From a virus: 64,000 nt of DNA. The notes below the pieces were generated by a model. The model did no database searches and was not told the DNA's origin. It saw only the letters and a list, made by a program, of their open reading frames with translations. Below are positions 2,902-6,038 of the stretch, one piece after another; position 1 is the first letter of the stretch, and each line of letters begins with the position of its first letter. A program made the position numbers and the translations under genes. Location: IMG/VR virus record IMGVR_UViG_3300047476_001057, positions 32,001 to 96,000 of that record; one strand, given 5' to 3'.

Positions 2902-4521
2902 ATGGCAACCCCAGTTCTTAACAATGGTATCTTTCTACGGGATACAAGCTACCAAACTAGCTCGCACGTAGATTCTTACCACCTTTCTAACCTGCTTAAA
3001 TCAGCAGAGCCAACTGACCTCGGTCCAGTTGACCTGTGGGCTATGGCACAAAAGGTAGAAATGCCTTTGTACCAGATGTCTTCTTTTGGCGGAAAGAACG
3101 TAATCTCTGTAGATAACGCACGTGGTGAGTACAAATGGCAAGTGCCTGTTGCACAAGATCTTCCTTATATCGTTGAAGACATTGAGTCTGCTAACGCTAC
3201 TAAAGGTATTGACGGTCAGTCTTTCAAGATCAAGATCAACAAGCGTTCTTTTGGTCATGGTGATATCGTCACTTATGACAAGTACAATGGTGTTGAAATG
3301 TACATCACTGCTGATGACATCATCCCTGCTGGCGATGGTTTCATTTACACAGTTCAGTTGGTGAACAATGACAACGCTAAGTATTTAGACAACAAATACC
3401 TCAAAGTTGGAACTAAAGTATTCCGTAAGGGTTCTGCCCGTGGTGAATACGGTGAAAGGTTCTCTGACTTGGGTAATGTATCAGCTGGTTTCCGTGAATT
3501 CTACAACTACGTTGGTGGTGCAGAAGCTCACGTACACTACAGCATCTCTTCTCGTGCAGACTTGATGTTGAAAGGTGGAATGAAAGCTGACGGAACTGTT
3601 CCTGTTATTGAGATGTGGAGAAACTTCGACAAGAGTGTTGATCCTTCTATTTCTAGCTTGGAAGACATGGCTTCTAAGATGGGTAAAGACTATGTAAAGA
3701 AAGCTTACCAATCTGGCCAGTTGTCTAGAACTTTCTTGACTACTTTGGAAGCAGCTCATTTGACTAAGATTGCTAACGACATCGAGACTTACCTTATGTG
3801 GGGTCAAGGTGGTAAAGTTAAGCAAGACGGTCCAGATGACATCAGACTTTCTGTTGGTCTTTGGAAGCAGCTTGACAACTCTTACAAGCGTATTTACAAC
3901 AAAGGTTCTTTCAACCTTGAGCTTTTCAAATCTGAGATCTTCAACTTCTTCAACGGTAAGGTTGAGTTCCAGGGTCCAGATCCTAAGCGTCAGTTGATTG
4001 TTCAAACCGGTATGGGTGGTATGAAGCTTGTTAACGAGGCAATTAAGAAGGAAGCTATCAACAGCGGACTTGTTATCAATGCTTCTGAGATCGGAGCTAT
4101 CACCGGTAAAGGTATGGATCTCAACTTTGGTTTTGCATACACTCAGTACGTTATTCCTTTCTTGGCTAACGTTAAGTTTGTATTGAACCCAGCGTTTGAT
4201 AACGTACACACTAATGACATTGAGAACCCAATCATTGACGGTTTCCCATTGTCTTCTTACAACTTCATCATTTTTGATATCACAGATAACACTAACGACA
4301 ACATCTTCATGTTGAAGCTTAGCTGGGATAATCAATTGAAATGGTTCTATCAGAACGGTACCATGGATTACATGGGACGTACTCAAGGATTCCAGAGCTC
4401 TGGTAACTTCAACGGTTACAGAGTGTTCATGACTCAAACAATGCCTGCTATCTGGGTGAAAGACCCAACCAAGGTGTTGAAGATCGTTATGAGGAACCCA
4501 ATCACTGGTGGATCATTCTAA
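2902..4521 (+). CDS. Major capsid protein, crAss-like
   Basis: 539 aa; segments such as GEYKWQ, ETYLMWGQGG, SVGLWKQLD, VQTGMGGMKL, VKFVLNPAFD and IWVKDPTKVLKI match my recall of crAss-like MCPs. Codon usage is strongly biased, as in highly expressed genes. Confidence 0.92.
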   Translation: MATPVLNNGIFLRDTSYQTSSHVDSYHLSNLLKSAEPTDLGPVDLWAMAQKVEMPLYQMSSFGGKNVISVDNARGEYKWQVPVAQDLPYIVEDIESANATKGIDGQSFKIKINKRSFGHGDIVTYDKYNGVEMYITADDIIPAGDGFIYTVQLVNNDNAKYLDNKYLKVGTKVFRKGSARGEYGERFSDLGNVSAGFREFYNYVGGAEAHVHYSISSRADLMLKGGMKADGTVPVIEMWRNFDKSVDPSISSLEDMASKMGKDYVKKAYQSGQLSRTFLTTLEAAHLTKIANDIETYLMWGQGGKVKQDGPDDIRLSVGLWKQLDNSYKRIYNKGSFNLELFKSEIFNFFNGKVEFQGPDPKRQLIVQTGMGGMKLVNEAIKKEAINSGLVINASEIGAITGKGMDLNFGFAYTQYVIPFLANVKFVLNPAFDNVHTNDIENPIIDGFPLSSYNFIIFDITDNTNDNIFMLKLSWDNQLKWFYQNGTMDYMGRTQGFQSSGNFNGYRVFMTQTMPAIWVKDPTKVLKIVMRNPITGGSF

Positions 4522-4534
4522 GATAATAGTCTAA

Positions 4535-4562
4535 ATCCGGGGGAGCCGTAACTCCTCCGGAT
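4535..4562 (+). terminator. Strong hairpin 3' of MCP (terminator or mRNA-stabilising stem)
   Basis: ATCCGGGGGAG-CCGTAA-CTCCTCCGGAT, 11-bp stem with one G-U pair. No clear U-tract follows. Confidence 0.45.
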
Positions 4563-4590
4563 GCGGACTTTCACTTAAAACCCCAAAACT

Positions 4591-4776
4591 ATGCAAGCAA
4601 TTATTGCTAAGCTCCTCGGAGCTAACCCTAAGACATCTATTCTCGGACTTTTGATTGCAGCCCTTGGTATCGTTCACGAAGCTTTGAAAGCTGGTGAAAC
4701 TGATTTCATGAATATTGCTATTGCAGTATTGATGGGTGTGCTTGGTCTTAAAGCTTCTGACGGAGCTAACAAGTAA
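4591..4776 (+). CDS. Small two-TM membrane protein (holin-like)
   Basis: 61 aa; two hydrophobic stretches (SILGLLIAALGIV, IAIAVLMGVLGL). AAAACTATG start context matches the other genes. Confidence 0.6.
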   Translation: MQAIIAKLLGANPKTSILGLLIAALGIVHEALKAGETDFMNIAIAVLMGVLGLKASDGANK

Positions 4777-4788
4777 AAAAGTAACAGT

Positions 4789-5002
4789 ACTCAGAAAGGA
4801 TAGCGGCCACCAGCTTAGCTGGCTAAAACACCCTCACTAGTCTGAGTCATTTTACCCCTCCTGGGATAGTATCCCCGGACCGTACCCCGCTTGGATCTCA
4901 GTATCCTGGCTCTAACCTGTTGTACGCAAACCGTGATGATCACACGGAGAGCTTGCAACTCTCAACAGGTTCAACATGAGGTCGCAGATTGCGGCCACTA
5001 GT
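4789..5002 (+). ncRNA. Candidate structured non-coding RNA or cis-element
   Basis: Intergenic and more GC-rich than its flanks. Stems: ACTCAGA/TCTGAGT, TAGC..CAGC/GCTGGCTA, GGGAT/ATCCC, GGAT/ATCC, plus a three-way junction at 4914-4971. I recognise no known family. Confidence 0.45.
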
Positions 5003-5024
5003 TCAAAAACCAAAAAACCAAACT

Positions 5025-6038
5025 ATGAGTGTAACTATTGTAGAGAAGTATCCACAGAACAAACGTTCCAGCATTGCTATCAGACCTTTCTTTGATCCAA
5101 TGGTGGACAATATGGGACTTCAGAAGTATGGCTTATCTCTTTTTGATGGAGCCTTTCATGAAGAACCCATCACTTGTTTAGAGATTAATGGTATTAAAAG
5201 ATACGTTACCGGCCTTAATGAGTTTGCTCCTGAAGTAAAGGATCTTCCTTTAGAAGAACAGGAAGCAAAGATTAAACAGATTAGAGCTGTAGTAGCAGAA
5301 CTTGAAAAACAACTTGCTGCCAATGTGATTGATCCTAATGATGATCAGTTTTGGAACAAGGTGAAGCTTTTAAAACCAAACAATGATGAGTTCTGGGACA
5401 AGATAAAAATCCGTTGTGGTAACGAACCGGTATATCTAGAGCCTGAAAAAGACCCTTATGATCTCATCAGACTTTATGCAATAGACGCAGGTGGGTTTTC
5501 TATCGTAGCTAAATCTTTAGAAGAAGCACGCAGAATGCCAGTACCTCCTAAATTTTATCTGGACAAACTAGAAGAAACAGCTTCTATCCAGACAGAGGTG
5601 AAGAAACTTCGTAACAAAGCTTTGGCTGAATTACAGAAGTTGTTTGACAAAAATCAGAACAAGCTTCTTTATGTAGCTAAGGTTCTTGATCCAAACAGTG
5701 CTCAGTACAAGAAGTCAACTCCTAATGATGTAATCTATGATAACATGGATAAGTACATCAACGGTGAGCTGGTAGATAAAGACAAGCGTAAGACAGGACA
5801 AAGATTCCTGGATGCAGCTAACCTGGATATGGAAACCTTGAAGATCCGTGCTATTGTAAAAGATAGTGGCTACTTTAAGTTTATAGCTCCAAAAGCAGAT
5901 GGATTTATCTATCATATGAAGACTGGTACCATGATGGGAAGAACACCTTCTGATGCTGCAGAGTTTTTAAAGAACCCTATGAACGAAGAGATCCTGATAG
6001 ATCTTACCAAAGCAGTAGAAAAATACTGGAACCAGTAA
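5025..6038 (+). CDS. Conserved crAss-like protein downstream of MCP, function unknown
   Basis: ATG at 5025 (AAACTATG context) is more likely than the TTG at 4989. Helical, K/E-rich; syntenic with the crAss capsid module. Confidence 0.6.
   Translation: MSVTIVEKYPQNKRSSIAIRPFFDPMVDNMGLQKYGLSLFDGAFHEEPITCLEINGIKRYVTGLNEFAPEVKDLPLEEQEAKIKQIRAVVAELEKQLAANVIDPNDDQFWNKVKLLKPNNDEFWDKIKIRCGNEPVYLEPEKDPYDLIRLYAIDAGGFSIVAKSLEEARRMPVPPKFYLDKLEETASIQTEVKKLRNKALAELQKLFDKNQNKLLYVAKVLDPNSAQYKKSTPNDVIYDNMDKYINGELVDKDKRKTGQRFLDAANLDMETLKIRAIVKDSGYFKFIAPKADGFIYHMKTGTMMGRTPSDAAEFLKNPMNEEILIDLTKAVEKYWNQ

Follow-up and report, generated by a model that had tools for sequence, protein, structure and literature searches.

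Between the major capsid protein gene and the gene for a 337-amino-acid (337-aa) protein, an uncultured freshwater crAss-like phage encodes a compact RNA three-way junction with a pseudoknot. The substitutions found among its relatives leave us nearly certain that this junction is a real RNA structure under selection, and its well-supported core of 56 nucleotides (nt) is small enough for immediate biochemistry. Tentatively, we favor the reading that the element may act in cis on the capsid mRNA to set a boundary, direct processing, or confer stability. The DNA that we analyzed (called the window here) is a 64-kb stretch of an IMG/VR virus record of 126,629 bp that is ~97% complete.

The junction is built from three helices (P1, P2, and P3; Table 1). 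P1 is conserved over 7 bp, and in the window its strands extend to AACCTGTTG (4914-4922) and CAACAGGTT (4963-4971), which are complementary at 9 of 9 positions. A linker (GTACGCAAAC; consensus, GUAYGCRNAC) leads from P1 to P2, which has 4 conserved bp and the loop ATGATCA (L2; consensus, N-UGAUCA). P2 runs directly into P3, and P3 runs directly into the 3' strand of P1, with zero unpaired bases at either transition. The 7-nt loop on the 5 bp of P3 (L3, CTTGCAA; consensus, YUNGCAR) has the format of an anticodon loop (pyrimidine, U, three pairing bases, A, purine), and positions 3 to 5 of this loop pair with a triplet of the linker to form the pseudoknot. In the preliminary description, P1, P2 (CCGTG/CACGG), P3 (AGAG/CTCT), and the outer stem of a hairpin farther upstream (4789-4795 with 4841-4847) had been drawn, and all four are present where they were placed; the three-way junction stands, although the conserved lengths of its helices differ from those drawn. 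About 25 positions are invariant or nearly so, many of them unpaired, and the invariant unpaired bases in the main form of the element are GUA, AC, UGAUCA, and UUC. The sequence 3' of P1 is UUCAACAUGAGG in the window and UUC(A/U)A across homologues.

Table 1. Features of the capsid gene region (window coordinates except for the last row)
Feature	Coordinates	Strand	Description or basis
Major capsid protein gene	2902-4521	+	539 aa, crAss-type capsid; PHROG 11589 (major head protein), E value = 5e-30
Post-stop hairpin	4535-4562	+	ATCCGGGGGAG...CTCCTCCGGAT, no U-tract; sequence
Small ORF	4591-4776	+	61 aa; ORF list; between capsid gene and RNA region
Noncoding spacer	4777-5024		248 nt, between 61-aa ORF and 337-aa gene
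Domain U	4789-4847	+	Outer stem ACTCAGA/TCTGAGT, inner 3-bp AGG/CCU, hairpin CCAGC-TTA-GCTGG
Two C-rich tracts and P0-type hairpins	4855-4910	+	Tracts, 4855-4861 and 4885-4888; hairpins, 4860-4878 (GGATAGTATCC top) and 4889-4910
Core three-way junction with pseudoknot	4915-4970	+	Covariation, covariance model
P1	4915-4921/4964-4970		7 bp
Linker P1-P2	4922-4931		10 nt
P2	4932-4935/4943-4946		4 bp; loop, 4936-4942
P3	4947-4951/4959-4963		5 bp; loop, 4952-4958
Pseudoknot	4926-4928/4954-4956		3 bp, GCA with TGC
P4 hairpin	4980-4996	+	GGTCGCA-GAT-TGCGGCC; 5' leader of 337-aa gene
A/C-rich leader	5004-5024	+	AAAAACCAAAAAACCAAACT, no Shine-Dalgarno; directly before 337-aa start codon; one site in window
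337-aa gene	5025-6038	+	Usual downstream neighbor of junction; 162 relatives in IMG/VR
Sister-clade terminators	L301:4139-4239; L302:4130-4183, 4442-4540; L303:4139-4223; L304:1905-2044

The case for selection on structure comes from comparison. From the 162 relatives of the 337-aa protein in IMG/VR we took 80 loci, and a BLAST search of the spacer against these loci aligned, in most of them, just an island of ~59 nt (window 4914-4972) at 79 to 95% identity; outside this core the spacer was otherwise unalignable. In an alignment of 54 distinct copies (A3; a smaller alignment, A1, holds 34), 96.5% of the cells at paired positions could pair, compared with 33 to 41% when the partners were slid by 1 to 3 columns. 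Compensatory double changes occurred at 14 of the 19 pairs, and none of 500 shuffles reached the observed covariation score. RNAalifold found P1, P2, and P3 unaided and placed the G/A-C/U pair at the junction in P3 rather than in P1 or P2. A covariance model matched 69 of the 80 loci with scores of 57 to 91 bits, always on the plus strand, and it found one copy only in the 126.6-kb genome. G-U combinations greatly outnumber A-C combinations in paired positions (41 versus 6), which indicates that the folding and functional form is the sense-strand RNA of the operon. The covariation among relatives that had been suggested as a check is thus present, and the earlier proposal of a structured noncoding RNA of the capsid operon is upheld, with the sense strand as the one that is read. 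Folding energy, suggested as another check, gives a weak case from the single sequence: the z-score is -2.6 for the junction, -1.76 for the whole spacer, and between -0.1 and -2.6 for homologues, with nearest-neighbor energies that ignore the pseudoknot.

A protein-coding open reading frame was considered and rejected as the source of this conservation. The core varies in length (66, 67, 69, or 70 nt) through indels in P2 and L2, its substitutions compensate one another in pairs, and copies in which the loop reads CUGAUCA lack the ATG that L2 contains in the window. The same pairing data bear on the idea that the conserved object is a DNA site, with palindromes that bind a protein or are methylated or with single-stranded or cruciform DNA that serves replication or packaging. 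Near-invariant TGATCA, which contains GATC, and the occurrence of the element only once in the genome, like origins and packaging sites, would suit such a site. However, it is pairing and not sequence that covariation has preserved, the excess of G-T over A-C means that only one strand, the transcribed sense strand, folds well, and stems of this length could not hold a cruciform stably. GATC itself is ordinary in this genome and is not avoided (264 copies versus 230 expected), and we regard a DNA-level function as highly improbable.

The pseudoknot is itself visible in the evolutionary record. The linker and P3-loop triplets covary among distinct copies (GCA/UGC in 39, GCG/CGC in 9, and GCC/GGC in 5), and two variant forms of the element, B and C, carry GUA/UAC and (A/G)CG/CGU, respectively, so that pairing is always kept. 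Pairing between linker and P3 loop, which the preliminary description had offered as an alternative conformation, is therefore real. The same substitutions yield P3 loops with UCGCAA, UGGCAA, or UUGCAG, which break the TTGCAA palindrome; since the loop is used for the pseudoknot, we consider this palindrome incidental.

The P2 loop behaves differently from the P3 loop. Its hexamer, UGAUCA, is nearly invariant in the main form (54 distinct copies; IMG/VR and metagenome scan), and one lineage carries UGGCCA, a double change of the two central positions that keeps the palindrome. A search of IMG/VR and a metagenome scan (89 matches in the latter, 1 of them real) for other central dinucleotides returned only this lineage, with no single-change TGNNCA. 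Outer positions of the hexamer have changed without compensation (CGAUCA and UGAUCG, each once), and one locus (L057) is without the UGAUCA loop. Two aligned loci (L003 and L140) carry the linker TACGCAGA and CTGG-CTGATCA-CCGG. The UGGCCA lineage is a weak hint that the loop may pair with itself, resting on one evolutionary event.

These loop data bear most directly on the possibility that a discrete, stable small RNA is cut from the operon transcript, acts in trans, and might dimerize or oligomerize through its UGAUCA loop. The hexamer is a perfect palindrome whose sole variant at the two central positions is again a palindrome, and a location 3' in the gene with the highest expression would make the RNA abundant. 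That variant stands for a single event, however, and the uncompensated outer changes, L057, and forms B and C, in which this loop is missing, also count against the idea. The element is not bracketed by a promoter or terminator: no sigma-70 promoter beyond chance was found around it, no terminator-like site occurs in positions 4300 to 5300, and no stem there is followed by a U-tract. Multimerization driven by two palindromic loops, as proposed earlier, is not sustained, given that TTGCAA is not conserved and is engaged in the internal pseudoknot and that P2 is absent from forms B and C. Nor did the suggested likeness to the loop-loop pairing of phi29 packaging RNA (pRNA) survive, as L2 and L3 are not complementary to each other and the pRNA model was unmatched. 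A trans-acting small RNA is in our judgment unlikely.

Forms B and C delimit what the fold can do without. In form B (4 distinct sequences), a GGG...CCC mini-hairpin takes the place of P2, and GUA of the linker pairs with UAC of the loop CUUACCA. P2 is missing from form C (3 distinct sequences), where (A/G)CG pairs with CGU of the loop CUCGUAA. Both occupy the same site as the main form in closely related phages (capsid, 90 to 97% identical; 337-aa protein, 83 to 94% identical), and both retain P1, P3, and the pseudoknot, with the linker sequence changed almost completely. All forms therefore share a core made up of P1, P3, and the pseudoknot between loop and linker, and P2 with its UGAUCA loop is dispensable. 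Pattern scans for further members of forms B and C returned only the known loci and two chance matches. A more drastic change is seen in L032:2960-3005 (IMGVR_UViG_3300008116_000303), where a 111-nt deletion between two CATGA repeats takes the whole of P3, one half of P2, and the 3' strand of P1 and fuses the truncated junction directly to the start codon of the 337-aa gene. The deletion may have arisen in nature or during assembly; unless it is an assembly error, the element may be dispensable.

The distribution of the element is narrow. It is present in ~110 IMG/VR contigs of one phage clade with capsid proteins 84 to 100% identical, and all 101 matches to a strict pattern in IMG/VR fell in that clade and between the capsid gene and the 337-aa gene. 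In every locus whose sequence includes the upstream DNA, the capsid gene lies upstream of the motif, with or without an ORF of 50 to 76 aa in between; the 61-aa ORF of the window is found in only some relatives, and others have such ORFs of 50 to 76 aa or none at this site. Among 185,579 GTDB genomes, 7 matches to the pattern were obtained, of which 1 was real (73 bits; L197:3688-3754, JBIICJ010000153.1), on a 5-kb contig in a Lake Mendota metagenome-assembled genome (MAG) labeled "Micavibrio sp." This contig is probably misbinned DNA of the same phage clade and not evidence of the host. In sister clades with capsids 49 to 60% identical, the junction was not found, and a hairpin with a U-tract, that is, a terminator, follows the capsid gene or the capsid gene and a small ORF.

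The carriers of the element are abundant uncultured freshwater crAss-like phages with genomes of ~127 kb and a crAss-type capsid, and the homologues of this capsid have the Pfam domain PF23898 (Crass_capsid). The nearest cultured capsid is that of Leptolyngbya phage Lbo-JY46 (29% identity), followed by those of crAss-like phages and of the Cellulophaga phages phi17:2 and phi4:1. No such fold occurs in the 64-nt spacer that follows the capsid gene of Lbo-JY46, and blastn against 50,697 phage records returned no cultured-phage DNA relative. The capsid gene, the 61-aa ORF, and the 337-aa gene are all on the plus strand, and neither the 337-aa and 61-aa proteins nor the 74-aa and 150-aa proteins of related loci matched a PHROG or Pfam family. 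Among the scored candidates from public metagenomes, 3,149 proteins belong to the capsid family at an E value of ≤1e-20, many of them on contigs of 125 to 135 kb. Separately, several short palindromes are strongly avoided in the window (1-64000; observed versus expected, GCGC, 0 versus 103; CGCG, 3 versus 103; TCGA, 15 versus 230), as are GGCC (20 versus 103), AATT (164 versus 510), and CTAG (79 versus 230), a pattern suggestive of selection imposed by particular restriction systems. The 248-nt spacer holds 2 of the 20 GGCC sites of the window.

The junction is the last of a series of modules that follow the capsid stop codon, namely, a post-stop hairpin, an optional domain U, a C-rich tract, a P0 hairpin, and the junction. 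Relatives have a comparable long hairpin, GCAGGGGG...CCCCTGC, at the post-stop position. Domain U, present in 45 of the loci examined, is supported in its own right: over 14 distinct copies, 96% of its cells are paired versus 22 to 43% in slid controls, with double changes at 8 of 15 pairs. A C/U-rich tract occurs in 52 of the 54 distinct copies. A P0 hairpin, whose stem covaries and whose conserved top is GAUAGUAUC-like, is found in 43 of the 54, and in copies that lack it the tract abuts P1. The window has two such pairs, one P0-type hairpin after each C-rich tract, and these are the two GGAT...ATCC hairpins already recognized in the preliminary description. A search for a pairing partner of the C-rich tract gave as its best candidate the 5' strand of P3, which did not exceed chance (3.9 nt versus 3.6 nt in shuffles). 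Of the repeated pieces that had been pointed out, GCGGCCAC does recur, at 4803 and 4991 (2 copies versus 0.18 expected, a count reached in 3 of 100 shuffles), whereas CACTAGT is not enriched (10 copies versus 16 expected). In three loci (L013:2830-2895, L054:2830-2898, and L058:2800-2880), the P0 hairpin and the junction are separated by a further conserved module of ~60 nt, which reads CUGGAACCGACCAG - AUGAGUAUGGGAGUCAUGACC - GGAAAGGAG... and has no Rfam match.

Downstream of the junction, a P4-type hairpin of variable sequence occurs in all loci in which the 337-aa gene comes next and is absent when other ORFs follow the junction. Relatives conserve the A/C-rich leader as AAAAACCAAAMAAACCAAAC, and a leader without a Shine-Dalgarno sequence fits initiation of the Bacteroidota type, so the host may be a member of the Bacteroidota. 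Extra ORFs (74 to 77, ~150, or 935 aa), when present, lie after the junction and before P4 and the leader of the 337-aa gene. In loci with such an insertion, P4 thus remains attached to the 337-aa gene, and the junction goes with the capsid side of the spacer. Across loci, the junction lies 10 to 290 nt from the preceding stop codon and 6 to 60 nt from the next start codon.

This arrangement bears on whether the element could be an operator in the 5' leader of the following gene, where a phage or host protein would bind, with the UGAUCA loop as its recognition site, and set downstream expression. In favor of this idea, a start codon always lies within that short distance, and UGAUCA is nearly invariant across the 54 distinct copies, IMG/VR, and the metagenome scan. 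Phage operators of this kind exist, the pseudoknot of T4 gene 32 being an example. Candidate RNAs upstream of gp32 genes are among those described by Fremin et al. (PMC10690425). On the other hand, the gene that would be regulated is not constant, being the 337-aa gene in some loci and an ORF of 74 to 77, ~150, or 935 aa in others; forms B and C lack P2 and L2 despite the close similarity of their capsid and 337-aa proteins to those of the main form; and P4 and the leader, not the junction, accompany the 337-aa gene. The element may control downstream expression, but an operator of this design seems to us rather doubtful.

We return to the boundary, processing, or stability reading as the one we tentatively prefer. 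The operon transcript would carry the element as a cis-acting boundary that defines, processes, or protects the 3' terminus of the capsid message, which is very highly expressed, or, equivalently, shields the 5' end of the downstream message, so that capsid output would be uncoupled from that of the following genes. The knotted fold would then count for more than any single loop sequence. This reading is favored because the junction travels with the capsid side of the spacer, because it sits where relatives carry terminators while its own clade has no terminator there, and because the natural variants keep topology and not sequence. Several observations count against it. The ordinary predicted stability of the fold (z-scores of -0.1 to -2.6) suggests no obviously strong block to exonucleases, invariant unpaired bases are less typical of a generic stabilizer than of ribozymes, aptamers, or protein sites, and the short, constrained gap to the next start codon, as opposed to the variable upstream gap, would fit a 5'-leader role equally well. 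The contig L032, with most of its junction gone, counts against the reading as well, unless it is misassembled.

The invariant unpaired bases lead directly to the possibility of a new small self-cleaving ribozyme that would cut the transcript at or near the junction, so that the capsid message would end in a hairpin cap and the downstream message would have a folded 5' start. The element is compact and pseudoknotted, many of its ~25 invariant or nearly invariant positions are unpaired, and its ordinary thermodynamic stability suggests that its function lies in a tertiary fold. It is also a single-copy, intergenic element of a phage late operon, and hammerhead, twister, pistol, and hatchet ribozymes often sit in such places. 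Yet no Rfam ribozyme model matched at E values of up to 10, core motifs of the hammerhead, HDV, twister, and pistol ribozymes are lacking and the connectivity is unlike that of each, and forms B and C have replaced almost the whole linker, which a catalytic core would normally not tolerate. Self-cleavage is, on balance, an unlikely function. A more general proposal, that the element represents a new functional RNA class in DNA phages, either a small self-cleaving ribozyme or a phage counterpart of the exonuclease-resistant knotted RNAs, and sculpts the capsid operon into messages of differing stability, we consider somewhat speculative and rather improbable.

Whatever its function, the element offers a clean case for a new Rfam family, new with respect to Rfam 15; the 10,006 candidate structured RNAs that Fremin et al. 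(2023; PMC10690425) predicted from IMG/VR may already include it. Three natural structural variants define its minimal core. The phage clade that carries it is very abundant in environmental metagenomes, with thousands of capsid homologues, and belongs to the crAss-type capsid lineage, about whose late gene regulation almost nothing is known. A processing or stability element would show how these phages overproduce capsid without a terminator, and a catalytic or nuclease-resistant element would constitute a new RNA class.

Comparison with known RNA systems began with Rfam 15. The 64-kb window gave no matches at the gathering threshold, and at E values of up to 10, positions 4400 to 5400 gave three chance matches, none on the element, in keeping with the earlier statement that no Rfam family was recognizable. 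Nine loci with the main and variant forms gave only one subthreshold match, to 6A, on the P4/leader region. A tRNA or tmRNA was rejected, as ARAGORN found none in the window and no Rfam tRNA or tmRNA model matched. The element does resemble tRNA in that P1, with its 7 bp, adjoins P3, with its 5 bp and 7-nt loop, much as the acceptor stem adjoins the T arm, and, loosely, in that the loop-linker triplet contact recalls the elbow formed by the D loop and T loop. It differs in having two arms only and no CCA or discriminator context; a tRNA-like structure was likewise rejected, as the T-loop consensus is missing from the P3 loop and the sequence on the 3' side is UUC(A/U)A rather than NCCA. The terminators of the sister clades occupy the equivalent position, but the element is not an intrinsic terminator, since no U-tract follows its stems and its fold is branched and pseudoknotted rather than a simple GC-rich hairpin.

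The phi29 pRNA is also a phage RNA organized around a three-way junction with two hairpin loops. In contrast to the present element, pRNA is 120 to 174 nt long, lies near the genome end of phi29-like phages, and multimerizes in trans through two mutually complementary loops, and an RNA of this type was rejected here because L2 (UGAUCA) and L3 (YUNGCAR) are not complementary, L3 covaries with the linker, and no Rfam pRNA model matched. Compared with a retroviral dimer initiation site (DIS), the UGAUCA palindrome is nearly invariant and the UGGCCA lineage is palindromic as well, alongside CGAUCA, UGAUCG, and forms that have no such loop. The known small self-cleaving ribozymes (hammerhead, HDV-like, twister, twister-sister, pistol, and hatchet) were rejected because no Rfam model matched, a CUGANGA...GAAA core is lacking, and the helices follow an order unlike that of HDV, twister, or pistol ribozymes.

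The exonuclease-resistant RNAs (xrRNAs) of flaviviruses and plant viruses are likewise small three-way-junction or pseudoknot folds in which topology, not stability, does the work. In both, P1 encloses two hairpins, P3 runs directly into the 3' strand of P1, and a hairpin often follows. Unlike in xrRNAs, the P3 loop of the element pairs with the P1-P2 linker and not with downstream sequence, and no partner was found for its 5' C-rich tract; no Rfam model matched, and a bacterial host would use other decay enzymes. The likeness is one of layout. In genomic position, the element resembles Mu-gpT-DE, an Rfam motif located downstream of Mu-like major head genes. Although Rfam scans of the window and the nine loci gave no sequence or structure match to it, and although it belongs to another phage group and the three-way junction with its pseudoknot sets the present element apart, each is an orphan conserved RNA directly 3' of a phage major head or capsid gene.
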